Below, piece after piece: positions 10,887 to 38,561 of a stretch of DNA of 64,000 nt. This stretch comes from a virus: positions 32,001 through 96,000 of the IMG/VR virus record IMGVR_UViG_3300031754_000002. The stretch is one strand, 5' to 3'. Below the pieces are notes generated by a model. That model was given only the letters and a program-made list of their open reading frames with translations. It was not told the DNA's origin and made no database searches. A program made the translations under genes and the position numbers. The stretch's first letter is position 1; every line of letters begins with the position of its first letter.

Positions 10887-12451
10887 TCTGTTATTCCGAT
10901 CCCTCTACTGTCGTTTATCAACGAATTGATGAGCTTTTTCAGCTCGTTGACCGCTTTGTTCGTCTTGTTCAGTTCAGTGTCGAGTTCTGTCACGAGGGCG
11001 ACTGTGATCGTCGTCGAAAGTTCCGGTTCGGCATGGGTGCGGGCGGCCGTGGCGTACGTCTGTGTGTATTTCGCCGCACGTTCGACAGGTGCCACGCCAA
11101 ACAGGCCGATGGCTTTTTCGCTAATCCTGAAAATGCTCGTCTTAGTCTGCGCTCCGATGTGGAAGGTCTGGCCGGGCGTGAAGTTGAAGCCCGTGTCGCC
11201 TTTGACGGTGCCTGTGAGGAAGCCGCCCGTGGAGTTCGAGACGAACCACTTGGCGTTACCGGTCACGTTGTGGATCTGCGCACTGAAGGCGCTGCTTTCC
11301 GCTGACCCGACCAGGAGGATCGGGTCGAGGTTGCGGACGCCGCCGAACAGTTCGAGCAGCGGCGTGACGGAGACCGGTGTTGCAGCCCCGATCACGACCT
11401 GTTGTTCCGTAGCTGGCGCTAGCCCCACGGCCTTTTCTGAGAGCCGCACGAGGGAGGTCTTAGTTTGCGCGCCGAAGTGGAACGTCTTCCCGGGCGTGAA
11501 GTTGATGCCCGTATCGCCCTGGACGGTCCCAACCAGGTATTGGTTGGCCGCGTTGCACACAAACAGCTTGAACTGGCCGCTCGCGTTACGCCAACGCGAA
11601 GAGTGCGAGGTCGAGGTGCCCGAGCCAACATCAAGGATCGGATCGATCGTCGAGGTCCCCGAGTAGACGACGAATAGCGGGCCCGCTTCTGGCGCTTCGA
11701 GCGCGCCGATCACGACCTGTCCCGCCCCCTGCGCGACGGCGAGCGACGCCGTCGAGTGCGTCCCGTTGACCTGTATCGAGGTCAGCGCTTCGGAGTCGTC
11801 ACGAAAGCTCTGGCCGGTCACCGCTTCCTTATTGACGCCGATCCCGACCGCCCAGTGCGCAGCGGCGGTAGTATGGCCGATCTGTAGCCCGCAGCCAGAA
11901 TCAGCTGTCCCGACCGGGTGCAGCCAGATACCACGGGTGCTAGACGCACCTTCTTTGTTGTAGATGCCGGCTGTTTCCGTCTCGTTGTCGCAGACCGTCT
12001 CGTTACCCACCGCGACACCTTCCGCAGATTCACGACGGCCGCTTGCGAAGATGCCCTGCCCCGACCGCGTGGATACCGCCGAGGATCGGCCGATGAAATA
12101 GCCACCAATCCCGTCAGCGTGTGACGCCGCCCCAACATACGTGCCATCCGTGGACGCGCCTCCAAACACGCCGATCGCCTGTGCTTGCGAGCCAGCTACC
12201 GCATGAGTGACCCCCGCGAGGGCCGCCAAACCATCGGCACCGTCCCCCGTAAACGCAGATTCTAGGATTTTGGTGGTACGCGACGCCTTTGCCGCCGTCC
12301 CGAAAGCTTCATCAGGAGCCGCCGCTTTACCCAAGCTGATCGACAGATTGCGCTTAGGCGAAGCCTGGAAGATATGCACTTCTTCGCCCGTTTCAAGCTG
12401 ACCACTAGTTATCACCGATGATGGCAGTTCAGCCGGGTTGCGCACCGCCAC
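10883..12451 (-). CDS. Fibre/spike-like protein with an internal duplication and C-terminal coiled coil
   Basis: Two copies of QVVIGA...DPIL.VGS...GDTGxNFTPGxTFHxGAQTKTS..RxSEKAxGL. Confidence 0.55.
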   Translation of the reverse strand: MAVRNPAELPSSVITSGQLETGEEVHIFQASPKRNLSISLGKAAAPDEAFGTAAKASRTTKILESAFTGDGADGLAALAGVTHAVAGSQAQAIGVFGGASTDGTYVGAASHADGIGGYFIGRSSAVSTRSGQGIFASGRRESAEGVAVGNETVCDNETETAGIYNKEGASSTRGIWLHPVGTADSGCGLQIGHTTAAAHWAVGIGVNKEAVTGQSFRDDSEALTSIQVNGTHSTASLAVAQGAGQVVIGALEAPEAGPLFVVYSGTSTIDPILDVGSGTSTSHSSRWRNASGQFKLFVCNAANQYLVGTVQGDTGINFTPGKTFHFGAQTKTSLVRLSEKAVGLAPATEQQVVIGAATPVSVTPLLELFGGVRNLDPILLVGSAESSAFSAQIHNVTGNAKWFVSNSTGGFLTGTVKGDTGFNFTPGQTFHIGAQTKTSIFRISEKAIGLFGVAPVERAAKYTQTYATAARTHAEPELSTTITVALVTELDTELNKTNKAVNELKKLINSLINDSRGIGITE

Positions 12452-12452
12452 C

Positions 12453-12752
12453 CTAAACCTCCCTGACCGTCAACACGCTATTCGCCGCCGTAGCAATCGC
12501 GTTTACTGAGCCCGTCCACACCATCGGCCCCACCATCCCATTCCACGAGCCACCACCCGACGCCAAGAAAATCCCCTGTTTCAACACAGCCGCCCCACCA
12601 AGTTCCAGGTAGATCGACGCTGTAGACGCGTTCACGAGTTCCAGACCCTCACGAGCCAGGTTTTCAGCCACGACCGCCGTCGATGCTCCTTCCACTTCGA
12701 CTTTCGGCCCCGCACTCGTCAGAATGTTGGCTTTGTTACCCGTGTCAGGCAT
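12453..12752 (-). CDS. Small virion-associated protein
   Basis: MPDTGNKAN... directly after MCP 2. Confidence 0.55.
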   Translation of the reverse strand: MPDTGNKANILTSAGPKVEVEGASTAVVAENLAREGLELVNASTASIYLELGGAAVLKQGIFLASGGGSWNGMVGPMVWTGSVNAIATAANSVLTVREV

Positions 12753-12754
12753 GA

Positions 12755-14059
12755 CTAGTATTCCGCACTCACTTCTAGTCCACTGCCTTCCATATAGGCA
12801 AGGCCCGTCGGATAACGATGCAACGCTGCCGCATAGCCATGAAGCTGGAACCGTGCCTGCAACGTCCCGGACAGAACCTCCTTGAACACGCTCGTATGCT
12901 TCGGCGACTCGAACAACACACTGTCGGTCGGACGTGCGCACACAATCACGTCGCGGTTTTTCCCTGCCCCAAGAGTCGCAGGAATCGCATCTGACAAAAA
13001 TGTCGGCCAGCCAAGGATCGGGGGAGCGACAGCAGGCCGCGAGTCATCGAACGTGTACGCCACGGGAGGGAGCGCTTGATGCCCAGGAACCGCGAGAGGG
13101 AGGTTCTGCAAATCCTCAGCACCCCCGAGATAGCACCAGCGAGCGGTCCGCATCAACCACACCTCCGGCGGACAGTTCCGTGCATCCCCCAGCTTTGCCG
13201 CGACCTGCGACAGCGCAGCGAACATTTCATAGCCCTGTTTACCCGTGTACTGCACTACCGACACGCCACCCGCACCGGTAGTGAGATTCAGCACACCCGC
13301 GATTCGCTGGTTCGCTTTCCCCGTGCCAGTAAACAGCGACTCCTCAAGCCTGCGGTCATAGGACTCCAACAGGTCCTTCAACACCACTACATCCAAGGCG
13401 GCAGTAGCCGGTGATTGTTCAAGCTGCTGCATCGAACAATCCGCCTGCCCCGCGAACGTCTCACACCACGATTCAACCGCCGCATCCGTGAAGTCCCGTT
13501 CCGGCGCAGGCGTGACATCAGATACTCCCGGCGCGTGAGTGCCTTCCACGATACGCGGCAGGTTCACTTCAACCACGCCCGTCGGCAAATCGAAAGTAGG
13601 GATCATGCTCGCGTAAACCCGCTTGGCCCTCGCGGCAGTGGCAAAATACTCATTGGCCCACCACGGCACCCCAAAAAACTCGCCACCAGTGACACGGCTA
13701 GGGTTCACACGAAACTCCGCGCCCTCAAGCCTCCGCTGCTGCAACCTTTCACTCTCAACAGCAATCTCTTTGGCGTGACGCTCCAACCGTGCTCTCGCCC
13801 GCTGATCATTGCTGATCTGCGCACGCGCCACGTCCGCGAAGTAGCTTGCCTGCTCCTCGCGTGGAAGATGACCCTGAAAGCGTTCATACACCATCGGCTC
13901 ACGACGTATCTCAACGCGCGGTGAAAGCCGCTGTAGCTCAGCATGGTACGCACGAGCGCTAACAACCGCTTCCGCCTCGATACGTGCCCGGACTTCGGCC
14001 GGGATCGCAGCGCCACGGTCCTCCTCGACAGTCTCGTCAAGCTCTAGCGTGTCGCTCAT
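12755..14059 (-). CDS. Major capsid protein 2 (HK97-fold paralog)
   Basis: Follows prohead protease; shares NLP, AGQ.D...Q.LEQSP and EVLSGTL..RFQ motifs with MCP 1. Confidence 0.8.
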   Translation of the reverse strand: MSDTLELDETVEEDRGAAIPAEVRARIEAEAVVSARAYHAELQRLSPRVEIRREPMVYERFQGHLPREEQASYFADVARAQISNDQRARARLERHAKEIAVESERLQQRRLEGAEFRVNPSRVTGGEFFGVPWWANEYFATAARAKRVYASMIPTFDLPTGVVEVNLPRIVEGTHAPGVSDVTPAPERDFTDAAVESWCETFAGQADCSMQQLEQSPATAALDVVVLKDLLESYDRRLEESLFTGTGKANQRIAGVLNLTTGAGGVSVVQYTGKQGYEMFAALSQVAAKLGDARNCPPEVWLMRTARWCYLGGAEDLQNLPLAVPGHQALPPVAYTFDDSRPAVAPPILGWPTFLSDAIPATLGAGKNRDVIVCARPTDSVLFESPKHTSVFKEVLSGTLQARFQLHGYAAALHRYPTGLAYMEGSGLEVSAEY

Positions 14060-15837
14060 CGCGCCAACCTCAACATGTCCAGTTCCTGCTCAGCACGACG
14101 CGTCAGATCAACCACAACAGCCGAGCGACCGTTCGTCTCCTCACTGTCATCAGCACCCTGAGCCTCATCAGCCTTACCGAGCGCGGTAGCAGCCGCTTCC
14201 AAAGCCTTCGTGACCTTCTCGTCGGACGGACTGTCCATATCACCGGTCTGTTCGGCTAGCGCCTTAGCAACAGCCTCTTTCGCCTCGTCGATCGAGTCAG
14301 ACACACCCTCGTCAGCATCGTCTCTGGCCTCAGCCTCATACTCGGCGCGTAGCTCACGCACGCGCTCCGTGTACTCCTCGCCCTTCGCCGCTGCCTTCGC
14401 TTCCAGGCCCTCCCAGAACGATGCAGGCTCAGACTCCGACGGCAGTAGACCCGAAAGCTCGTCTCCGGCCTCCGCGAGCTTATCCACCAAGCCCTGAATC
14501 AACTGTTCCTTCGCAGACGACAACGCTTTACCCGCACGGAACTCATACTCGCCATCCGTTGAGCGAATACTTGTCGTGCTACCCGTTGACGGTGATGCGC
14601 CGAATGTGACGGCACTCACATCTCCGCCGTGCAAGGTCACACCCTTCACTTTGCGGTCAGTTAGCTCATCATTCCAGTCATCATCGGTGCAGCGAAACGC
14701 GAAACTCATCTGATCCACGAGCCCGCGCTCCATCTTCAGCTTTAGCCTCTGTGCATCCACGTCCCGCGGGTCAAAGGTCGCGTTCACGAGCAGCCCCTTG
14801 GATGTTTCCTCCAGCCTCAACGTGCCCGGAATGTCCGAGTCCTTACGTTCCGTTCGTGCAAGCGGCAAGCCTTCGTGTTCCACTCGAAACACGCAATCCG
14901 GTTCCTCTTTCAATGTGCGGCGAAAACTGCCACGGGAAATAGTCTCCGTGAAGCCACCAACCGAATATGGCACATCAAAAAGTGACGCATATCCTTCAAA
15001 ATGGAACATGCCATCATCGTCTTCGCTGCCGTCCCGGAACTCACATTCACGCACCGAGAACTGCCGGTGCTCCAAGCCCTTCGCGTTACGCAGATTTTCG
15101 ACCCGCCGCTTACGCAGCTCAAACTGTGCGGCGCTACGCGAATCCTTCTCGATTTCGCCCGTGCCATCACAATCCGGGCACTCCTTACCCTTCACCTTGC
15201 CACTACCATCACACGTCGGGCACGTTTCCATGTCCTCAGTGTCGTTTTCCACCGCACGCCGACCATTCGCCTCCGGCGCATATGTGGTGACACGCCGCAC
15301 CTTCTTAGGCGTCCCCAACGTCACATTATCATCGGCGTCCACCATGTACGTCACCTGCCACAACACGTCTTCGCGTTCATACACCGCCCACTCGTCAGTC
15401 ATGTCCGAGATGTAGACGTAGGAATATTCGCCCTTTTTAGGCTTCGGGAGCGATTCGACTATCGCCTGCTGCACCATCTGGCGACGGTCATTGTAGGTTT
15501 CGCGCTCCTCAAGCGTTGACCACACCGACTTTTCTTCTTTCAGCGATCCATCACTAGACCAATTGTCGGGTATGAGCGAACTGAGTTTCAGCGCCTTGGC
15601 ACGCTTAATGATGTGCGCACGGATTGAGTCATGGCTCGCATCTCCACGTCCGACCGCTTTGATCGCTTTTTTTAGGTCGTCTTCGTCCCCGATCGGGTAC
15701 GAGCCATCGGCCATTGCTTCGCCTTTTTTTGCCATTTCGTCACGGTCGGCCTTCTTGTACTTCGCGCGCCACTCCCGCTCAAGTGACCGTTCGACCGTCA
15801 CGATGTCAGTCTCGACCGGCTCAGTCTCAACACCCAT
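14056..15837 (-). CDS. HK97-family prohead protease with extra N-terminal domains
   Basis: FEGYASLFD, ETISRGSF, HEGLPLART, QMSFAF, DVSAVTFGA; N-terminal AMADGSYPI domain and CxxCxGxG Zn finger; acidic scaffold-like C-terminus. Confidence 0.85.
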   Translation of the reverse strand: MGVETEPVETDIVTVERSLEREWRAKYKKADRDEMAKKGEAMADGSYPIGDEDDLKKAIKAVGRGDASHDSIRAHIIKRAKALKLSSLIPDNWSSDGSLKEEKSVWSTLEERETYNDRRQMVQQAIVESLPKPKKGEYSYVYISDMTDEWAVYEREDVLWQVTYMVDADDNVTLGTPKKVRRVTTYAPEANGRRAVENDTEDMETCPTCDGSGKVKGKECPDCDGTGEIEKDSRSAAQFELRKRRVENLRNAKGLEHRQFSVRECEFRDGSEDDDGMFHFEGYASLFDVPYSVGGFTETISRGSFRRTLKEEPDCVFRVEHEGLPLARTERKDSDIPGTLRLEETSKGLLVNATFDPRDVDAQRLKLKMERGLVDQMSFAFRCTDDDWNDELTDRKVKGVTLHGGDVSAVTFGASPSTGSTTSIRSTDGEYEFRAGKALSSAKEQLIQGLVDKLAEAGDELSGLLPSESEPASFWEGLEAKAAAKGEEYTERVRELRAEYEAEARDDADEGVSDSIDEAKEAVAKALAEQTGDMDSPSDEKVTKALEAAATALGKADEAQGADDSEETNGRSAVVVDLTRRAEQELDMLRLAR

Positions 15838-15896
15838 GCGGACCTCCTTCGGAAACGAAAAGCCCGCAATTTGCGGGAAGTGAGCACAACGCACCT

Positions 15897-15912
15897 GTTA
15901 GCGTGTGCTAAC
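15897..15912. promoter_or_regulatory. Palindromic putative operator at divergent promoter
   Basis: GTTAGC-gtgt-GCTAAC between protease start and RHH gene. Confidence 0.35.
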
Positions 15913-15924
15913 GTCTGCGCGAAT

Positions 15925-16086
15925 GTGAAACAAACTGGGCTTCGACTAGAAGATGATCTACTTGCGCGGGTAGAAGCTGCTCGTGGTGACGTGCCACGTG
16001 AAGTGTTCCTTCGTCGCGCAATCGAACTTATGCTCAACACTAAACGAGAGGACTCCGATGGCAGCACGACCCGCACTGGTTCCTGA
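15925..16086 (+). CDS. Small ribbon-helix-helix-like regulator
   Basis: KQTGLRLEDDLLARVEAARGDVPREVFLRRAIE has a CopG/Arc-like pattern. Confidence 0.6.
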   Translation: MKQTGLRLEDDLLARVEAARGDVPREVFLRRAIELMLNTKREDSDGSTTRTGS

Positions 16087-16588
16087 ATCCGGCCCGTATG
16101 AGATTCTGCAAGGACTCATAGCCGAGGTGCTAGCCAACGGTGACTTTGTACCTGCGGAGGAAGCCCTGCGTATCGACAGGCTCATGCGCGAGAAGCATCC
16201 AAGACAACATGCTGCGTTTTTGGAGGCCCAGTCCTATCGCCTTTACTACGAGATACTGCAAGGTGCCTACCAAAGCCAGCGGCAGCGTTCGCGTCACCAC
16301 GCTCCCGCTAGTGAATTCGGCCGACGTGCTACCGGCAAGCACGATGATGTCTCAGTGTTTATAACGTGGCGCTGCAAGGTAGACGATGCCAACACTCAGC
16401 GAACGATCGGCGACATGACCGGAGCCGATCATCTCTATGTCGCCGACAGCTATCGCGGCGATAAGCAACGCGCAGCGATGCTAGAGGCATTTCACCGTGC
16501 AGTCGCAAAGAAGGCTGGTAGGCGCAAAACAAGCGAGGTCTTTTCAGAGGACCAGTTCCTCGCACTCTACGAAAGCATCGCTAAATAG
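16058..16588 (+). CDS. Hypothetical protein, candidate accessory factor of the RAMP cassette
   Basis: GAGAGGA RBS; 176 aa; directly precedes array 1. Confidence 0.7.
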   Translation: MAARPALVPESGPYEILQGLIAEVLANGDFVPAEEALRIDRLMREKHPRQHAAFLEAQSYRLYYEILQGAYQSQRQRSRHHAPASEFGRRATGKHDDVSVFITWRCKVDDANTQRTIGDMTGADHLYVADSYRGDKQRAAMLEAFHRAVAKKAGRRKTSEVFSEDQFLALYESIAK

Positions 16589-16603
16589 CACGACGGCCCT
16601 TGT

Positions 16604-16733
16604 TGACTGGCCCAGCCGTTGCACCTCCCCGCTGCCTTTCCGACTCCGCTGCCCACACTGCTCCTGCCCCGCCCCACGCTCCCGACTCGTCATCACAGCT
16701 CCCAGCCGAACAGGCCTGCCCAATCCTCCCGAC
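16604..16733 (+). repeat. Array 1: three CGAC-anchored units with 5-nt periodicity (putative guide-like ncRNA)
   Basis: (T/C)GAC at 16604, 16641, 16683, 16730 (spacing 37, 42, 47); pentamers end in C (19/21; the rest end in T). Confidence 0.75.
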
Positions 16734-16771
16734 CTCCTGAACTATTACTAACCAAAACACGAAAGGCCAAC

Positions 16772-17485
16772 ATGACCAGCATATTCGAGCCATACCGGCG
16801 CAAGAATTATCCGTATGTATTCGTCGCCTCGATCCACCTGCACACGATCGCGGGCGGCGTGCCCCTAAACGAGACAATTCTTGAGGGACACCTCAAGCGC
16901 AAGACCGCCGCACCCGATGACCTAATTCGCTCCGAGGTCGCCTCAATCATGGTCGAGGAGGGACTAAGTGCCGATGAGGCCATTGAGCGTGCCGCGAAAC
17001 GCAAGGGCCTTGTGGGCTTTGCGAAGGACAGCAACGGCCTTTATGTGCGCGGCTTTCAAGTCAAGGCGATGCTTGTAGAATCGGCGTGCATCGCTGCCGC
17101 CGAGGGACGCATCCCGAAGAAATGGGGCCAAATGTCCGAGCAAGGAAAGGCACTCAAGAGTTGGTTTCCCGAGCATGTGTTTGTTCTCGATGACCGGATT
17201 CACCTCGGCGTGGACGAGCCCACCGAAATTCCACAGTCGTTTATACACAAGGTAGGCCCGAAGGGGCCGATGAGCGCTATCCAGTACACGGAGCTCGTCC
17301 GCGATGCCGACGTATCCTTCGCGGTCGAGACAGACCACGACTTTCCCGAGGATGTTTGGGCCGCGATTTGGCTCACAGCCGAGCGTAACGGCCTTGGCGC
17401 ATCACGCAAGCTCGGCTATGGCACTTTTGAGAGCCGCAAATGGCAGAAAATGTCATCCCGTACCCGTAAACTTAAGGCCGCATAA
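16772..17485 (+). CDS. Stand-alone Cas7/Csm3-like RAMP superfamily protein (237 aa)
   Basis: N-terminal beta strand + GGVP; LYVRGFQVKAMLVESA (cf. IPGSSLKGxLR); C-terminal G-rich loop GLGASRKLGYGTF; GAAAGG RBS. Confidence 0.75.
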   Translation: MTSIFEPYRRKNYPYVFVASIHLHTIAGGVPLNETILEGHLKRKTAAPDDLIRSEVASIMVEEGLSADEAIERAAKRKGLVGFAKDSNGLYVRGFQVKAMLVESACIAAAEGRIPKKWGQMSEQGKALKSWFPEHVFVLDDRIHLGVDEPTEIPQSFIHKVGPKGPMSAIQYTELVRDADVSFAVETDHDFPEDVWAAIWLTAERNGLGASRKLGYGTFESRKWQKMSSRTRKLKAA

Positions 17486-17487
17486 TC

Positions 17488-17723
17488 TCTCGACACCGCC
17501 CGCTCGAAACACCGCACGAACCTGTCAGCCCATCCGACCAGTCAAACCAATCCGTCGCGCCTCGATACTATGCGCCGCACCCGACATTCCTCCTCGTCGA
17601 TACCCCTCGGCCCCGCCTATCTCCCCATCCCTTCCGACAGCCCCCCGTCGCCCTCGCCCTCACAGTACGCCCCCTCTCTCTCGACACCCCTGCCGCGACA
17701 CTCCGCACCCCTCCGCTTCCGAC
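17488..17723 (+). repeat. Array 2: five CGAC-anchored units with 5-nt periodicity (putative guide-like ncRNA)
   Basis: CGAC at 17491, 17535, 17582, 17635, 17682, 17720; e.g. cagtc aaacc aatcc gtcgc gcctc gatac tatgc gccgc. Confidence 0.75.
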
Positions 17724-17741
17724 TAACCGAAAGGACCACCG

Positions 17742-18779
17742 ATGACCGATGAGCCGAGTCGAAGCGACGAGATCAAGCACGTAGAAGGAGAGCTAAAGTC
17801 CCTTGCGAACCAAGTGGGCGTTGCGATAGGGCGTCTCCGTGCATTGCTCGGGGACGAGTTCGTCAAGAAGGTCCATGCCGCCGTGACTGGACGAGTTGCC
17901 TTTGACGAGGCGCAGCCGCTCACAGATGCGGATGCACGGGCATGGAGCGAGGCGAACCCCGGCAAGCAGGTACGTTTTACGGTGGAGTCCGAGGTCAAGC
18001 CCACAGGCGCCCGAAAGTTGGATGACTGGCTGGACGTGAAGGCACCCAAGGGCACCGTCGAGATCCGCAGCAATGAGATCAAGGAACTGGAGAAACAGCT
18101 AAAGGCGATCCCCGGTAAACTCACCGTTGCGGAGCTAGGCTGGATTCACAATCGTCTTGGCGAACTCTATAGGATGCCGGTGAAGGGCAACGCGGCACAG
18201 CAATCCTTTGCGCAAGCCTTCGGTATGGCACCATCGGAAATACATACGATCGAGGACGCGATTGTTGAGCTAGCCGACAAGCTCGGCGAGATGCGCACGG
18301 ACATTACATCGCTCCGTCAGACCGTGGGCGAGCTGCAAACCCCGTTTGAGCCATACGAGCCGCCAGTGCTCGCCAAGATACTTCGTCCGCATCTGCTCGC
18401 GCTAGACGATCACGGTGAGGACGAGTGGGCTGAGGGATCGTTCGGCTGGGGTGAGTGTTTGTGGGTGCCCGGCAAGGTGGGCATTGATGTGACGGAGATC
18501 AAGGTTGAGGCGCTGGCCGCCGGGACGGACAATATACACGGCGCGCAAGTGAAAACCTACGCCACCTATCGTGAAGACCACCACGATACCACACAGCGCG
18601 AACTTGTTGAGTGCATCGCGCGGGAGGCAGCTAAGCGGAACGCAACTGTTGTGTATCTCAGTAAGCCGGCGCATCGCCATATCCACGGCGACTATCCTGG
18701 CGACACGCCGCGTTTCCTACAGCACTGGTGTTATGCGGCGTTTTTGAGTGCGGCCCGCGCCGCCGGAGACGAGCAGTGA
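17742..18779 (+). CDS. Hypothetical protein with coiled-coil segments
   Basis: GAAAGGA RBS at end of array 2; 345 aa. Confidence 0.7.
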   Translation: MTDEPSRSDEIKHVEGELKSLANQVGVAIGRLRALLGDEFVKKVHAAVTGRVAFDEAQPLTDADARAWSEANPGKQVRFTVESEVKPTGARKLDDWLDVKAPKGTVEIRSNEIKELEKQLKAIPGKLTVAELGWIHNRLGELYRMPVKGNAAQQSFAQAFGMAPSEIHTIEDAIVELADKLGEMRTDITSLRQTVGELQTPFEPYEPPVLAKILRPHLLALDDHGEDEWAEGSFGWGECLWVPGKVGIDVTEIKVEALAAGTDNIHGAQVKTYATYREDHHDTTQRELVECIAREAAKRNATVVYLSKPAHRHIHGDYPGDTPRFLQHWCYAAFLSAARAAGDEQ

Positions 18780-19225
18780 GTGACGACTTCGGCAAACTGC
18801 ACCAAGCCGACAACTCCGCCAGCCTCAACGGTGTGACACTCCGCGACCTTACCGAGGCTTTCGACGCCGAGTTTGAGAATCGCCTCATCGCAGGCATCTA
18901 TCATCTACGCGAAGGAGACACCATGACCACAACCCCGAACCCCTTGAAGCTGAAAGGTATGCGCCAAATCGGTCCGCGACGCGGACTATGCCTTATCCCT
19001 CGCCACAACGGCGTAGGCGCCCTGCTCGGCGCAGACATAGAAATCACTACTACCGAACCATGAACCTGAGCATGTTAGCCGTGCCGTCTATGAACTCGTG
19101 TGCGATTCGCTACTCGACAGACGGATAGATAATCCACACGACCCCGCTCAGCGCAAGGTATGGGTGCGCTGCATGACCGAGGAGCACGAGCAGGAAAGCA
19201 ATCGTCTCGCCGGGTTCTGAGGGGC

Positions 19226-21704
19226 CTACTTAGCTGGCGTCAACACCTTCCCGTCACCGTTCGATGACGGCACAGCCGGCTCCGGTGCATACTTCGCTTC
19301 GATGGCCTGTTCCGCTTCCGCCATCACTTTTTCAAGTAGCGTCGTGTTAATCGGCGAGTTCAGTTTATCGCCGTCCGGCAACGCCGGCAGGTCGAACAGT
19401 GCTCGTGCGTCGTTCGGCGTGAAGTAGCCTCCGAGCGTCCCGAGCGAGCCAGCGTTCGCGCGCTCAAGGGTATCCCCGCGCAGACGGTGGCTCATGTCGA
19501 TCGCCACGAACTGCCCTGGCGGGTGGATCGCGGTCATCGCGGCTTCGTAACGGCCCGTATAGTCCTGCAACGTGTTTTTCGTAAAGCCTAGCTCCTGCTG
19601 CTCGATCCCCCGATAATCGACCCCACGAGTTGTGAACAACCACGCCTTCGGCTAGGAAGGAGTGATTACCCGCAACCGCGAGGTCATAGACTGGCACCTC
19701 AACTTTCGAGCGGTCGATTTTGATTACACGCTGCAAGATAACGTCGTCGTACTCCCAACCGTAGCTCGGGCTCTGCCGGCGACCATCCCAGCCGCCAACG
19801 TTGCCGCCCGTCCATCCCTCGTCATAGCGCCCTAGTCGTATTGCTGGTCGAGTGACGAGTCGCGCCCGCTTACGCGCGCTATTGGCACCGATACGACTAT
19901 TGAAGAACACAGTCGAGAGAGCAAGTTGATACTTCTGGCCCGACCGCACACGACGGCCAGCAATCACCGCGTCACACGGCGGTCGTCCCAGGTGGACTCG
20001 TCCAGCCGGAACACCCACTTGGATGCACAAGTGGCGGATATCCTCTAGCAGGAGTCGGTTACACGATGCGAAGCTAATCGCCCCTGCCTTGTTGACACTC
20101 CCGTCTGCGTCGAGATATCCGCGCAGGAATGCTAGCTGTAGCTCCGGCTTGAGTTCGTACACCCAACCCGGCACTCGCTTTGTATGCGCGTCGCCCGTGA
20201 ACCCGCAGTCGTCAAGCAGTTCGCGTGCGTCGGCCGACGAGAAGCGCGTCCTCGTGCCTGTGCGTATCCCCCGATTGGGTGCGTTGTCTGTGTAGGGTTC
20301 TACGCCGAACTCATCGCGTACGACCTGGCAGTAGTGCTCCATGTGATCGGGCTTGCTCTCGTGGGCGAGCTCGAAACGGTTTTTGTCCTGTGAGCCATCG
20401 CCCGTGTAGAGTCCACAAAGCTCCATCGCGCCGACCGTAAGCTGGCGCCCATTGGGCGCATACTCATCACCCTGGTCCCCGAAGCCATGAGGCACGAGCA
20501 GGTAATCCTTGATCGTAACCTCATCGGCGCGAACCCAAACCGTTTCCCAGGCGCAGTCGCCACTCGCACGGCCCTCTGGCCGTCCAAAGTATCGGCGCAC
20601 TGGCAAAACATGGTTTGCCGTCAACTTGACAGTGCGAGCCGATGTCTGGATGCTCAGGAGAGGCTTGTGGCCGGTTAGTTGCCGCGAGACGACCGTTGCA
20701 GGCTCGATCCCGCGCTCACCGAGCGACCAAACCTCCTCGCCAGCCTGAATCTCGCAGATTGGCCGTGGTCCCTGCGTCGTGAACACCTGCGCTTCGGCGG
20801 GCAGACACGAAACTCGTTCAGTCAGTCCGATCATGTGCGGGGGGCACCGAAAGATCGTGGATGCGATCTCTGATGCCGACCATTGAAGCGATTCTAGGAA
20901 TTGGGAGTCCTGCGGGGATATCGTGATCGGCTTGATTTCCGTGTCACCCGTCACGACGGCTGGAAGATGCGAGCTATTCAAGCCCTGGTGCGCCGCCATA
21001 AACGAGCGAACCATTTTCTTTGTCTGGTCCGGCGACAGGTCACCCTTGACCTGGATCACGATCGACGGGTTCGCGCTATTGCGGAAGTACTGTAGCCCAT
21101 AGGTGGACTGCGAAAGCGACTTGCTAAACGCCAAGCGCTGCGCCTCAATTGGGTTAATGCCTTCCAACATTCCCGGAAGCCAGAGGAGCTTGACGTGAAA
21201 TACATCTTGCCTTGGCACAACTTTATTGAAGAACCGATACTGGAGTTCTCCTTTACGCAGCCGTTCGACATGCGCACTGTCGGCCGGTATGGGCTTGATC
21301 TGCGTCGGGTAGAGCTGCTTGTCGCGGCTGATGATCTGGCCGAAGAAGTTGCCACGAATGGCGAGGGACGCGACGAACTGGACGATCCAGTCGAAAAGCC
21401 CAATCTCGCAGTATGGTTCGGTGAGGAGGGGAGAGGGTTTTAGCTCTTTCGCCTTTCGTAGTACCCTGTTGTTGAGCAGCAGAACGGGGGAGTTCGCTAC
21501 CGAGCTAGAAAGAAGGTTAGCGCATGAGTAGACGGTCGCTATCGAGAGCGCCGCCTCTTGGCTTACACCCATGCCTCCAGACCCACCGAATCCCCCGATT
21601 TCTGAGTTCGTAGGCTACGGGGGAACGCTGTTGCCCCATTCGGTGCCCGGCCGCGCCGCGCGTGCGTCCATTGTCTGTGACAGCGCGCGAAGGATCAACG
21701 ACAT
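19226..21704 (-). pseudogene. HK97-family portal protein with intein; interrupted by an in-frame TAG (21615-17) and a frameshift (~19615)
   Basis: AALSIATVYSC, LAIRGN, SPQDSQFLES, IFRCPPHMIG, SWGxGIEQQ, TPNDARALFDLP; disruptions may be real or assembly errors. Confidence 0.8.
19629..20807 (-). mobile_element. Intein with LAGLIDADG endonuclease in portal (393 aa)
   Basis: S|CLPAEAQV...TANH...GLYTGDGS...FLRGYLDADGS...VYDLAV...VVHN|S. Confidence 0.9.
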
Positions 21705-27849: not shown

Positions 27850-28056
27850 AACTGAGGCACTACCGCCCGAATACGCGGTGATCTTCTGCGCCGGCATGAT
27901 GAGGAGGCCAAAGAGCTTCGGATCGTTGAAGGCTAAGGATCTAAACGAGCGCAAGCTAATCTTCGGATGCGATTGTGGTTGTCGTGGCGACTGGTCACTC
28001 GATGATGCGGGGCTATATGAGCGTCCGGCCCTCGACTCGCTGCTGGGGAAAGCGAC

Positions 28057-28383
28057 GTGAGACGCAACCTAAGCATCAGCTTCGAGGAAGCCTTTATCGA
28101 ACGCCTAGACTTGGAACGTGGCACTATCTCGCGGGGCCGCTGGATCGAAGGCGAGCGAGCAATCGCGCCAAATACTACCGCTGCCGAGATTGGCTCAATG
28201 GCCGCCAATGCCTTCGGTGCCATGGTTGCCGCCGAGAACGATAACCTCCGGGCAGCACGCGCTCAACCATCACCGCTCGCCCATCCCGTCGAGACCCTTG
28301 GCGAGATCGATGAGCACGTCACCGTGGAAACCCGCAAGCCCTCCTCGGTATCCCCTAAGCTGAGCGCAGACATCAAACCCTAA
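28057..28383 (+). CDS. RHH-like N-terminal domain protein
   Basis: RNLSISFEEAFIERLDLERGTISRGRWIE. Confidence 0.5.
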   Translation: MRRNLSISFEEAFIERLDLERGTISRGRWIEGERAIAPNTTAAEIGSMAANAFGAMVAAENDNLRAARAQPSPLAHPVETLGEIDEHVTVETRKPSSVSPKLSADIKP

Positions 28384-28421
28384 CCGAAGCAAACCAAACC
28401 CAAAACACGGAGACAAACACC

Positions 28422-28883
28422 ATGAGGCAGCTACAACGACAGGGCGACGTACTTCTAATCCCTATCGACAGCATCCCCGCGAACGCAACAGCCGTCGCCC
28501 GGGACGCCCGCGGGCGAATTGTGCTCGCTGAGGGTGAGCGCACTGGGCACGCGCACTGTGTTCTCGACGATGCCGCGACACTATTTCGCCAGGATGATCT
28601 CGACGAGATGGCCGACCGTTTCCTACATGTGCAGGCCGAGTGCGGACTTATCGACGCTTGGCGGTGCCGTGACCGGCGGCGAGACATCGTATGCTGGATG
28701 CCCGCATACCAAAACACGGACCGCATCGAAGCGGCCGACTATGCAATTCTCGCCCGCGAAGACATACCTGGCGTCATTGTCGAGCACGAGGAGCACCTAC
28801 ATTTCGTCGTGCTGCCCGGGGACCACATCATCCGGCCGAAGCGTGAATACCAGCCAGAGGCCCCACGTCAGGTGATGGACTGA
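28422..28883 (+). CDS. Conserved phage protein (RQGDVLL family), partner of the DUF6745-like gene
   Basis: RQGDVLL...LAEGE.TGHAH...HEEH....LPG......REY. Confidence 0.75.
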   Translation: MRQLQRQGDVLLIPIDSIPANATAVARDARGRIVLAEGERTGHAHCVLDDAATLFRQDDLDEMADRFLHVQAECGLIDAWRCRDRRRDIVCWMPAYQNTDRIEAADYAILAREDIPGVIVEHEEHLHFVVLPGDHIIRPKREYQPEAPRQVMD

Positions 28884-28917
28884 TGGCGGCTCTAATTGGT
28901 GACAGGATGCTTCGCTG

Positions 28918-30270
28918 ATGGGCAAGCTCACGAAACTAACCCCAAGCCAAACCAAGCATCTCGCGGCGAGTTATGAGGAATGGCTATCCGTCGGCCGCTG
29001 CACCGAACCAGCCGATCGGCCAGCAATGGAGACAGCGGTCCGCGCGATGTACGCCGAGATTGGCCAGCCTCCACCAGCAGTCGTCTGGCTGGACTCTCCG
29101 TTGGCTGGCGTGTGTGGCTCCTGGTTCCTATCAAACCTGTTGAAGACGTTGCGCAACGACGCAAACCAGCTCGGGGACCAGCTCAGGGACCAGCTCAGGG
29201 ACCAGCTCGGGGGCCAGCTCAGGGGCCAGCTTGGGGACCAGCTCAGGGGCCAGCTCGGGGACCAGCTCTGGGACCAGCTCTGGGGCCAGCTTGGGGGCCA
29301 GCTTGGGGACCAGCTCAGGGACCAGCTCAGGGGCCAGCTCAGGGACCAGCTCAGGGACCAGCTCTGGGGCCAGCTCGGGGGCCAGCTCAGGGGCCAGCTT
29401 GGGGACCAGCTCAGGGACCAGCTCTGGGGCCAGCTTGGGGACCAGCTCAGGGGCCAGCTCGGGGGCCAGCTCAGGGGCCAGCTCGGGGGCCAGCTCAGGG
29501 GCCAGCTCGGGGGCCAGCTCAGGGACCAGCTCAGGGGCCAGCTCGGGGACCAGCTCTGGGACCAGCTCTGGGGCCAGCTTGGGGGCCAGCTTGGGGACCA
29601 GCTCAGGGACCAGCTCGCACAATGCTGGTGGGCACAGCATGAAGCCGCGTGGATCGCATTTTACTTGTGGCCCGAGACGAACCTAGCCGTCAACTACAAG
29701 GAACAGGTAAGTCGGCGTCTCGCCCTTTGGGAGACAACCGCGCGGTCTAGCTCATGGTGGTGGCCGATGATCGGCTTGGTTGTCCTTACGGAGCGACCAT
29801 CCAACGTGTCCGTAGATGGTGAGGGCCGGCTACATGACGAGCGAGGTCCAGCGCTCGGCTACCGGGATGGGTGGGGCGTATGGTCGATCCACGGTGTACG
29901 AGTGACACCAAAGATTGTCGAGCACCCAGAGAGCCTAACGGTGCAAGAGATCCGGGACGAGCCGAACGTGGAGGTTCGACGGGTGATGCTCGAACGGTTC
30001 GGTGCGGACCGCTTCATGGCGGAAAGCAACGCTGAGCTTATCGGCGAGGATGATTGGGGGAAGCTGTGGCGGATACCCGACGCGCCAGATGAGCCAGACG
30101 GTAAGCCGCTGGTGCTCGTTGAGATGCTGAACTCAACCCCGGAGCCAGACGGCTCGGTACGCACATACTATGAGCGTGCTCACCCTGACGTGCAGACACC
30201 TTTGGCGGCGTTGGCTTGGCAGGCGAACATGAGCGAGAGCGAGTACATGCAGATGGGGGCGCAAACGTGA
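28918..30270 (+). CDS. DUF6745-like protein with tetrapeptide repeat tract
   Basis: W..SP; QL(R/G/W)(D/G) repeats; WWWP...ERP....D..GRLH...GPA..Y.DGW....HGV; NVEVRRVM; NSTPEPDG. Confidence 0.8.
   Translation: MGKLTKLTPSQTKHLAASYEEWLSVGRCTEPADRPAMETAVRAMYAEIGQPPPAVVWLDSPLAGVCGSWFLSNLLKTLRNDANQLGDQLRDQLRDQLGGQLRGQLGDQLRGQLGDQLWDQLWGQLGGQLGDQLRDQLRGQLRDQLRDQLWGQLGGQLRGQLGDQLRDQLWGQLGDQLRGQLGGQLRGQLGGQLRGQLGGQLRDQLRGQLGDQLWDQLWGQLGGQLGDQLRDQLAQCWWAQHEAAWIAFYLWPETNLAVNYKEQVSRRLALWETTARSSSWWWPMIGLVVLTERPSNVSVDGEGRLHDERGPALGYRDGWGVWSIHGVRVTPKIVEHPESLTVQEIRDEPNVEVRRVMLERFGADRFMAESNAELIGEDDWGKLWRIPDAPDEPDGKPLVLVEMLNSTPEPDGSVRTYYERAHPDVQTPLAALAWQANMSESEYMQMGAQT
29167..29616 (+). repeat. 12-bp coding tandem repeat, about 37.5 copies
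   Basis: Unit CAGCT(C/T)(A/G/T)GGG(A/G)C. Confidence 0.95.
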
Positions 30271-37594: not shown

Positions 37595-37834
37595 TCAACG
37601 GCTCTTTGCGTCGCCCAAGACGCGGGCAGCCTCATTGACCGGCTTGAATGCCCCCAAACCCGTCGAGAACACGTCCTCGCCCACGATCCACAATGGCCCG
37701 TCGTTGACCGGATACTCGATTGCGGCCTGCCTGAGCAGCTTCTCGTCTTCGAGCATCGCCGTCAATTCCTCGACCTTGCCGTGAAGCTGCTGTGCTCGTT
37801 TAGCCCACACTGCGGCTATAGCTATTGCGCTCAT
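37595..37834 (-). CDS. Hypothetical protein
   Basis: Coupled small ORF. Confidence 0.5.
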   Translation of the reverse strand: MSAIAIAAVWAKRAQQLHGKVEELTAMLEDEKLLRQAAIEYPVNDGPLWIVGEDVFSTGLGAFKPVNEAARVLGDAKSR

Positions 37835-38046
37835 CGCCGCTCCAGCAAGTCCAGAATCCAGTCCACATCCTCAGACGCAAAGCCGCACAACCGGCGTACA
37901 TCGCTCCTTGAGAGCTTGCCTTCGTTGAGGGCAGCGAGAACGCGATCCTGCCGAGAAACGAAGGTCGCTAGCATCTCCTGGGCCTCGTCTTCGACCTCGC
38001 GCCCGTATTCGGGGTCGGTCGGGCGCCGTTTCTGAACCGGCATCAT
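37831..38046 (-). CDS. Hypothetical protein
   Basis: Coupled small ORF. Confidence 0.5.
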   Translation of the reverse strand: MMPVQKRRPTDPEYGREVEDEAQEMLATFVSRQDRVLAALNEGKLSRSDVRRLCGFASEDVDWILDLLERR

Positions 38047-38561
38047 AGCAAAGCCTCTCGGACAGATCGCCGGCGATACTGATTGCCGTCACCGCCACCC
38101 GCGAATCGGGAGTTGAAGCCAGCCGCCTCAATCCCCGCGTTCCAGGTGCCAAACTCCGCCACGACAGTGGTCGCGTAGGGCCATCGGTCATCGTTTTCCC
38201 AGCGGATAGCCCGCTCATCGTCATTGTTTGCCCGAGCGCGCGCTGGAGCCCAATCGGGGAAGGCTGGCGGCTCATCATGAAGCGCAGCCCATCGACGAAT
38301 CGCATCAACCAGTGCTTCGCGAGTCCATACCTTGCGTTCCGCGCCATTGTGTCTCGCTGAACAAACCACGCAGCGAATCGGCGCGTTTGGACCACGGCCA
38401 TCGGAGCCATTCAGCGAAGCGCCACAGTCAACGCAAGGGATCGAATAGAGAGTCCGCTTCCGACAGCGGTCTGAGCACCACTTCGGAGCCCTGCCACGCC
38501 TTTGTACTCGCTCGAAAGACGCGCCGCAGCCAGCGCAACGAAACAAACGCACGCCAGTCAT
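38043..38561 (-). CDS. Zn-finger protein with homing-endonuclease-associated repeat
   Basis: CAGCG..WCSDRCR; WTREALVDAIRRW...FGTWNAGIEAAG. Confidence 0.6.
   Translation of the reverse strand: MTGVRLFRCAGCGASFERVQRRGRAPKWCSDRCRKRTLYSIPCVDCGASLNGSDGRGPNAPIRCVVCSARHNGAERKVWTREALVDAIRRWAALHDEPPAFPDWAPARARANNDDERAIRWENDDRWPYATTVVAEFGTWNAGIEAAGFNSRFAGGGDGNQYRRRSVREALL

Follow-up and report, generated by a model that had tools for sequence, protein, structure and literature searches.

A probable VIPR-family cassette with cytosine-phased, CGAC-punctuated pentamer arrays in an uncultured siphovirus

VIPR (Viral Interference Programmable Repeat) systems are a very recent class, in print since April 2026 (10.64898/2026.04.26.720920, 10.64898/2026.04.26.720927) and experimentally characterised mainly for one type. 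In the available text of these two reports, Vipr is a lone ancestral RAMP that polymerises with one protomer on each YNNGG repeat, keeping GGY sequestered and NN presented; it binds double-stranded DNA by a 1-nt-skip code and silences competing mobile elements. The text available for the first of them describes seven types, vap accessory genes and ‘staggered’ arrays, and the vrRNA motifs it lists are all G-based, namely YNNGG, NNNGG, YNNNG and NNNNG (10.64898/2026.04.26.720920). A further report, again in its available text, gives 21 clusters in which non-canonical motifs lie beside Vipr-like folds, for example CAC/NN, GAC/NN, WGT/NN and TGH/NN (10.64898/2026.10.21.760802). Here, we analyse a cassette in IMG/VR virus record IMGVR_UViG_3300031754_000002, within a stretch of 64,000 nucleotides (nt) that we call the window (bases 32001-96000 of the 105,858-bp record). 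The cassette encodes a lone RAMP of 237 amino acids (aa), which lies between two non-coding pentamer arrays and is preceded by a 176-aa partner, p176. We assign it, with a probability of roughly 0.85, to the VIPR family, as a Vipr-type RAMP with a clade-specific p176 and two multi-guide arrays; this probability applies to the family assignment and does not extend to the choice of guide strand.

This assignment is based on the fold of the protein, its profile homology to Vipr, the statistics of the phased arrays and the conserved layout of gene, array and partner. The system is a divergent clade of the published VIPR class and not a new kind of system; since the class has already been published, the window's system is not categorically new. 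The features of the cassette that carry the argument are as follows.

16058-16588, + strand: p176, a 176-aa open reading frame (ORF), the conserved partner of this Vipr clade
16589-16733, + strand: array 1, with a leading CGAC after the p176 stop codon and 3 units of 50, 42 and 47 nt
16734-16771, + strand: untranslated leader of the RAMP gene, carrying the ribosome-binding site GAAAGG
16772-17485, + strand: vipr-like gene, 237 aa, coding for a single-RRM RAMP resembling Cas7/Csm3, with the G-rich loop GLGASRKLGYG
17486-17723, + strand: array 2, with a leading TCTCGAC after the vipr stop codon and 5 units of 44, 47, 53, 47 and 38 nt

Phased arrays in the window and in related loci

The arrays occupy two non-coding gaps, 16589-16771 (183 nt) and 17486-17741 (256 nt). 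The units of array 1 consist of successive pentamers, one C in each being fixed, and close in YCCGAC, and the grammar of array 2 is alike; across both arrays there are eight units of 38-53 nt, all of which close in CGAC. Both arrays open with a CGAC 1-3 nt past the preceding stop codon and end just before the ribosome-binding site of the next gene. The CGAC motif occurs 4 and 7 times in the two gaps, against 1.3 and 1.8 occurrences expected from composition, an over-representation of about 3-4x. When the arrays were cut at CGAC and pentamers were laid backwards from every CGAC, one pentamer phase was found to be C in 51 of 62 pentamers, at a C frequency of 0.51 (binomial P 2.7e-7 before x5 phase correction), and 0 of 20,000 within-unit shuffles reached this count. 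Two pentamer-phased non-coding arrays had been proposed from the letters of the window alone, and this unit-anchored test bears the proposal out. Whole-array Fourier and autocorrelation analysis gave no significant period-5 power, because the phase restarts at every unit. The first and last units of array 2 are diverged duplicates of each other (17486-17517 and 17677-17708, 78% identical).

Searches for anything resembling CRISPR in the cassette were empty. No CRISPR-like direct repeats and no Rfam family were found in it, and no cas domain was detected in the cassette or the neighbouring ORFs with Pfam, PHROGs or NCBIfam, in agreement with the initial observation that cas genes and conventional CRISPR repeats are absent. 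There is also no further array elsewhere in the phage genome. Two C-rich, G-poor stretches, 1017-1235 and 12441-12607, were considered as arrays and rejected, as they lack a CGAC-anchored phase and overlap long ORFs.

Comparative data extend these observations far beyond a single phage. A word-indexed search found 95 relatives of the 237-aa protein, and an exhaustive profile search found 1,865 representatives of 50%-identity clusters at E <= 1e-3, with 1,064 at <= 1e-10. The DNA of 25 related loci was compared and 281 array units were measured. These loci come from Actinomycetes and Chloroflexi (Nocardiopsis, Streptomyces, Streptacidiphilus, Nanopelagicales, Jatrophihabitantaceae and Caldilineaceae), as well as from a betaproteobacterial metagenome-assembled genome, soil metagenomes, IMG/VR contigs and the cultured Microcystis phage Mae-JY09. 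At 20 of the 25, a CGAC-punctuated pentamer array directly adjoins the gene, so the prediction that homologues would keep flanking, CGAC-anchored arrays with a 5-nt phase is upheld. The C-phased strand is the gene's strand in all array loci, and that strand bears no G-phased array next to the gene. The median unit length is 34 nt, and the form ‘short leader, (CCNNY)n, CCGAC’ is the prevalent one among the loci. A C-N-C-N-N reading, one base off the anchor register, is found instead in the window and in the relatives nearest to it (L022, L023 and L027, 55-58% identity; 55% protein identity for L022 and L023), and it matches the NNCNC pattern first noticed in the window. Between loci, the units are wholly different while phase and punctuation are retained, and arrays hold from 3 to about 40 units per locus.

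Individual loci show the range of this format. Large arrays of 23-39 units, about 1 kb or more in length, are present at L004 1400-2380, L034 1100-2373 and L036 560-2990, and some are split in two blocks around a gene. In the Nocardiopsis locus L001 (2788-2855), two adjacent 34-nt units are identical save for three bases in one pentamer; this pair is a recent duplication that is diverging within a single pentamer. Microcystis phage Mae-JY09 (L021; PP395641.1 37713-38880) carries a 248-aa homologue annotated as hypothetical (37713-38459). About 12 C-phased units punctuated by CCGAC come after this gene, and beyond them, close to the end of the genome, lies a strong hairpin. The betaproteobacterial locus L009 is a distant relative (28% identity), and its array (2300-2673) is very regular, with units of 28, 33 or 38 nt that consist of 3 nt, (CCNNR) x3-5 and a constant CCGAAGCGAC. 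The junction from array to gene is itself a recurring element: an array end, AACC..GAAAGGA.. and the ATG are common to the window, L001, L006, L022 and L023.

The RAMP protein and its described relatives

The 237-aa protein matched no family in Pfam, PHROGs or NCBIfam, and its identification comes from structure and from profile comparison. An AlphaFold2 (AF2) model built on a 62-sequence alignment has a pLDDT of 89.3 and a pTM of 0.81. This model was compared exhaustively with 48,161 PDB representatives (VIA-align), and structural ranks 1-48 are all CRISPR RAMPs. The top matches are Csm3 (9g9a_D, Z 11.5, root-mean-square deviation 4.5 A over 154 aligned residues), 6ae2_B (Z 11.1) and a type VII Cas7 (Z 11.0). 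With Foldseek the best match is again type VII Cas7 (E 3.9e-7), with 157 chains at E <= 1e-3; the best match among viral models is a RAMP-superfamily protein of an uncultured siphovirus (E 5e-11). The family profile also aligns weakly to the G-rich loop of Csm4 (E 0.11). As modelled, the protein is a minimal RAMP with an RRM core, a thumb and a glycine-rich loop. The Cas7-like fold that the sequence-only reading had expected is therefore what the structural searches recover, and the RAMP motifs it pointed to, including the loop GLGASRKLGYG, are present.

The published VIPR systems to which the same reading had likened the cassette can be linked to this family by sequence. In an hhalign comparison that spans 132 columns, from helix 1 to the G-loop, the 62-sequence family profile matches a 35-sequence profile of SUSP1-type Vipr at E 6.2e-8 (probability 94.7%); the match to the single SUSP1 Vipr sequence reaches only E 0.05. 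Membership of the 237-aa protein in the Vipr superfamily is thus supported by both sequence and fold. In SUSP1 Vipr, the residues D177, W178 and R138 contact the guanines and R179 lies in the pyrimidine pocket (10.64898/2026.04.26.720927, section 5). In the profile alignment, the guanine contacts in the G-loop (D177 and W178) and in the thumb (R138) are replaced in the 237-aa protein by A210, S211 and E174. The pyrimidine-pocket residue R179 is kept as R212 and is the only contact residue that is kept.

A direct comparison can be made with the SUSP1 locus, a VIPR of type II (NC_028808.2, 27.6-29.3 kb), where vipr (28474-29061) and vap1 (28031-28471) both lie on the - strand, with YNNGG tracts on the same strand. 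Like the window, SUSP1 has a lone, small, single-RRM RAMP with a G-loop, to which the window's protein is profile-homologous; a two-gene locus with a small accessory gene; pentamer arrays on both sides of the gene; and a phage-borne setting without cas genes. There are also differences. SUSP1 carries YNNGG on the gene's strand, whereas the window has a fixed C there (C-N-C-N-N, and CCNNY in most relatives). SUSP1 produces four vrRNAs, each of about 100 nt with a structured 3' tail, whereas the window has abutting units of 38-53 nt without structured tails, punctuated only by CGAC and a phase break of 2-4 nt. In addition to its replaced guanine contacts, the window's protein is about 40 aa longer than SUSP1 Vipr, with extra helices after strand 1, and its partner p176 has no detectable fold relative. 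The suggestion that the different motif may mark a distinct clade or code is borne out by the fixed C on the sense strand and by the replacement of residues that contact guanine in SUSP1.

Other described systems can be set beside the window in the same way. The tested VIPR systems have GGY/NN or another G-based repeat on the vipr strand; in the window's clade, G phasing is seen only on the antisense strand. VIPR with staggered or alternative repeats and the non-canonical clusters come closer in layout, since in their available descriptions the arrays are dense, with the end of one unit serving as the start of the next, the fixed positions are reduced or altered, and a Vipr-like fold adjoins the array. 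CGAC punctuation, a sense YCC/CNC motif and a p176-like partner are absent from the text descriptions in 10.64898/2026.04.26.720920 and 10.64898/2026.10.21.760802, as far as these are available. The hallmarks of the clade (C phase on the sense strand or else antisense-encoded guides, compact CGAC units, replaced guanine contacts and p176) are undescribed in that VIPR text, although the clade may be one of the seven types or of the 21 clusters. The backbones of class 1 CRISPR systems (Csm3, Cmr4, type VII Cas7 and type IV Csf2) provide the best structural matches, at Z 9-11.5. They share the RRM core, thumb and G-rich loop, and Cas7 proteins polymerise along a guide with a fixed footprint. Unlike class 1 CRISPR, however, the window has no CRISPR array, no Cas5, Cas6, Cas10 or Cas11 and no adaptation genes; its step is 5 nt rather than the 6 nt of Cas7 backbones, and its units are not of the repeat-spacer kind. 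A class 1 CRISPR-Cas effector was accordingly rejected as an identity for the cassette, where the Cas7-like fold alone is present.

Guide strand, mechanism and alternatives

By analogy with the tested SUSP1 system, a mechanism can be proposed for the cassette. The array transcript would be cut at or beside CGAC to yield units of about 40-50 nt, and Vipr would polymerise on each unit with one protomer to a pentamer. Within each pentamer, the fixed base would be held by the protein and the two variable bases would be presented, so that they might read double-stranded DNA through a gapped code. No nuclease is encoded in the cassette, and binding is predicted to silence transcription of a competing phage, prophage or satellite.

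The strand that supplies the guide is harder to choose. We slightly favour the C-phased sense strand, which would be co-transcribed with p176 and vipr. The arrays fill co-directional intergenic gaps from stop codon to ribosome-binding site, and as parts of a co-directional operon they must therefore be contained in its mRNA. On a sense guide, the conserved C would occupy the pocket in which SUSP1 Vipr accommodates the GGY pyrimidine. The retention of R212 and the loss of the guanine contacts fit a guide of this kind, where conservation is strongest at the third fixed position, a pyrimidine (5'-Y-C-C-N-N). We put at about even odds the fuller proposal, that the clade uses sense, cytosine-phased guides (YCC/NN, relaxed to C-N-C/NN or to a single C) released at CGAC, with the guanine pockets lost and C in the pyrimidine pocket.

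Alternatively, this may be the same VIPR system with guides from the antisense, G-phased strand, a possibility that we hold tentatively and rate somewhat below an even chance. Units would then start with GTCG, pentamers would be of the published minority kinds (NNNGG or NNNNG-like, with G-N-G-N-N in the window), and guide transcription would run counter to the operon, perhaps as read-through from the late head operon on the - strand. Two observations speak against a sense guide and for this arrangement. The antisense strand of the betaproteobacterial locus L009 is an exact array of canonical YNNGG repeats behind a constant GTCGCTTCGG with a UUCG loop motif, and in SUSP1 it is the G-phased strand that coincides with the gene's strand. 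The vrRNA motifs in the available text of 10.64898/2026.04.26.720920 are, moreover, all based on G, and the window's cassette lies antisense to portal, protease and capsid genes, with a terminator-like hairpin on the - strand at its left edge. However, the gaps between array and gene measure a few tens of bases at most, too little room for a promoter, so that in nearly all loci antisense guides would have to be driven from within coding sequence. Such a promoter would be expected at the start of vipr, yet synonymous sites in the first 20 codons of that gene show no constraint, although this is weak evidence. Antisense guides would also be fully complementary to the system's own mRNA, and the residues with which SUSP1 Vipr binds two guanines are not kept. 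Motifs without a fixed G, such as CAC/NN, are reported for Vipr-like folds in the available text of 10.64898/2026.10.21.760802. Promoter and terminator scans of the window, L008, L021 and L030 gave nothing that decides the strand. Dinucleotide usage at the variable positions of window-type arrays was rejected as strand evidence: it correlates at r 0.64 with codon positions 1-2 in the antisense direction and at -0.02 in the sense direction, and this is largely a ‘second base C’ effect.

Two further explanations do without guides altogether. The arrays could be cis-acting parts of the operon mRNA, such as Rho-loading or Vipr-binding leaders that set the expression of vipr or of downstream genes. 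The classic substrate of Rho is C-rich, G-poor, unstructured RNA; the arrays do lie inside the transcription unit, and the scans described below found no target. A leader of this kind nevertheless fails to explain units that are hypervariable while phase and punctuation are conserved, arrays of 3 to about 40 units in which units duplicate and diverge, or arrays that follow the last gene of an operon, and it sits poorly with homology to a protein for which the use of such repeats as guides has been demonstrated; we regard it as very improbable. Even less credible, to the point of near dismissal, is the idea that C-rich intergenic DNA or decayed coding sequence gives rise to the periodicity incidentally, next to a RAMP-like gene with some other RNA-binding role. 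The lack of significant whole-array period-5 Fourier power and the two other C-rich, G-poor stretches in the genome could be cited in its favour. Against these stand the unit-anchored phase that no shuffle reached, the fact that those other stretches have no CGAC-anchored phase and overlap long ORFs, and the recurrence of the same grammar beside the gene in 20 loci across phyla; the comparative data contradict this explanation.

Some results weigh against the VIPR-family reading of the cassette. The window's arrays are among the most degenerate of the family: their pentamers have a single fixed C, the phase slips several times, and some of the units may have decayed. Target searches point in the same direction. 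Taking NN as the two most variable positions after the fixed C, exact NNx (1-nt-skip) patterns were searched against IMG/VR. Window units a2u2, a1u3 and a2u4, with 16 fixed bases each, gave 23, 6 and 5 matches, and two 18-base patterns from long L022 units gave 1 match each. In all five scans the number of matches was at or below a rough chance estimate and none extended into adjacent pentamers, exact matching being a test of low power. The matches lie mostly in unrelated contigs, often of low GC, in mixed frames or shadow ORFs, and with their neighbouring pentamers mismatched they were rejected as natural targets and put down to chance. A search for self-targets in the phage's own genome, in all 5 registers and with skips of 0-3, found none above shuffled guides; the absence of a self-target agrees with what the available text of 10.64898/2026.04.26.720920 reports for VIPR. 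Because exact target matching is a weak test, the case for guide function rests on homology and on the evolutionary behaviour of the arrays.

The choice of strand matters for what the clade can teach. A widespread C-phased clade means either that guides run antisense to their own operon or that the guide bases held by the protein can be swapped from G to C. If the bases are swappable, wider rules would become available for the engineering of minimal RNA-guided DNA binders. If the guides are antisense, the clade would represent a new layout and a regulation problem, with guides complementary to their own mRNA. The sense, C-phased reading, if true, would amount to a natural re-coding of the protein-held part of the VIPR guide, with only the 5-nt step and the two read-out bases being essential. 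Units of about 40 nt with 4-7 nt of punctuation would be the shortest multi-guide format of the family. With Microcystis phage Mae-JY09, the clade is available in a cultured host-phage pair, which makes an experiment on the strand practical.

Partner genes and genomic setting

The conserved partner of the RAMP gene is p176. A search found 16 homologues of the protein, and tblastn places p176 homologues in 13 related loci, where they are all co-directional. These loci are mostly arranged as p176-array-vipr, the elements being separated by no more than tens of bases. The AF2 model is all-helical, with a pLDDT of 85. No fold match was found in the PDB (best Z 4.4; Foldseek E > 5) and no match in the Atlas, and p176 has no family in Pfam, PHROGs or NCBIfam. 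Its distribution suggests a clade-specific accessory protein, a candidate for a vap-like role.

The remaining genes of the cassette's neighbourhood are less constant. They are listed here together with the flanking features.

14056-15894, - strand: prohead protease gene (Peptidase_S78), flanking the cassette
15863-15877, - strand: terminator-like hairpin and T-run bordering the cassette on its left, directly upstream of the prohead protease gene
15925-16086, + strand: RHH-like ORF (Pfam RHH_1 E 0.007, below the curated cut-off; PHROG 876 ‘transcriptional repressor’ E 0.014)
19226-21572, - strand: portal gene with an intein that has a LAGLIDADG domain (Pfam Intein_splicing, LAGLIDADG_3)

The RHH-like ORF is probably, on sequence grounds, a transcription regulator that heads the cassette. 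It recurs only in L023, upstream of the p176 homologue, and is not a conserved part of the system. Downstream of array 2 are an ORF of 345 aa (p345), which looks like a coiled coil, and one of 111 aa. Neither is conserved with the system, the 345-aa ORF being found in no related locus, and both were rejected as system parts. The junction between array 2 and the 345-aa gene (17724-17744, CCGAAAGGACCACCGATGAC) is nearly identical to the array-to-vipr junction of the Nocardiopsis locus L001 (2976-3003). This likeness suggests that modules of array plus ribosome-binding site move via recombination.

The phage itself is an uncultured, probably actinobacterial siphovirus. Its record is rated complete by CheckV and its GC content is 60.5%. 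Its major capsid protein is about 31% identical to capsid proteins of Mycobacterium phages, which makes an actinobacterial host probable. The cassette has a viral location, as expected of VIPR, with capsid, portal and protease genes around it. It forms part of a + strand gene block at 15897-19225 (about 3.3 kb) that comprises the RHH-like ORF, p176, the arrays, vipr, and the 345-aa and 111-aa ORFs. This block separates two - strand head genes, portal and prohead protease, that are usually neighbours; the ORF list and the assignment of these flanking genes agree with the order, and with the orientation against the head operon, that had been read from the window at the outset. Opposed as it is to the direction of portal and protease, the block resembles a moron-type insertion, and the cassette is most likely an inserted accessory module within the head-gene block that serves competition with other mobile elements. 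Because the block is inserted against the direction of the head genes, late head transcription must either stop or cross it antisense. The hairpin at 15863-15877 bears on whether - strand transcripts cross the cassette, and it is weak evidence, as a consensus scan gave 3 sites against 1.9 expected in shuffles.

Both flanking head genes have unusual architectures. The prohead protease carries a long N-terminal fusion, in which there is a CxxCxGxG zinc-ribbon motif, and has a long, acidic, scaffold-like tail at its C terminus. In the portal gene, the final 80 or so positions of the portal profile lie in a separate, overlapping ORF in another frame (19226-19639), and this split of the C-terminal part reflects either a frameshift or an assembly indel at the end of the intein/C-extein.

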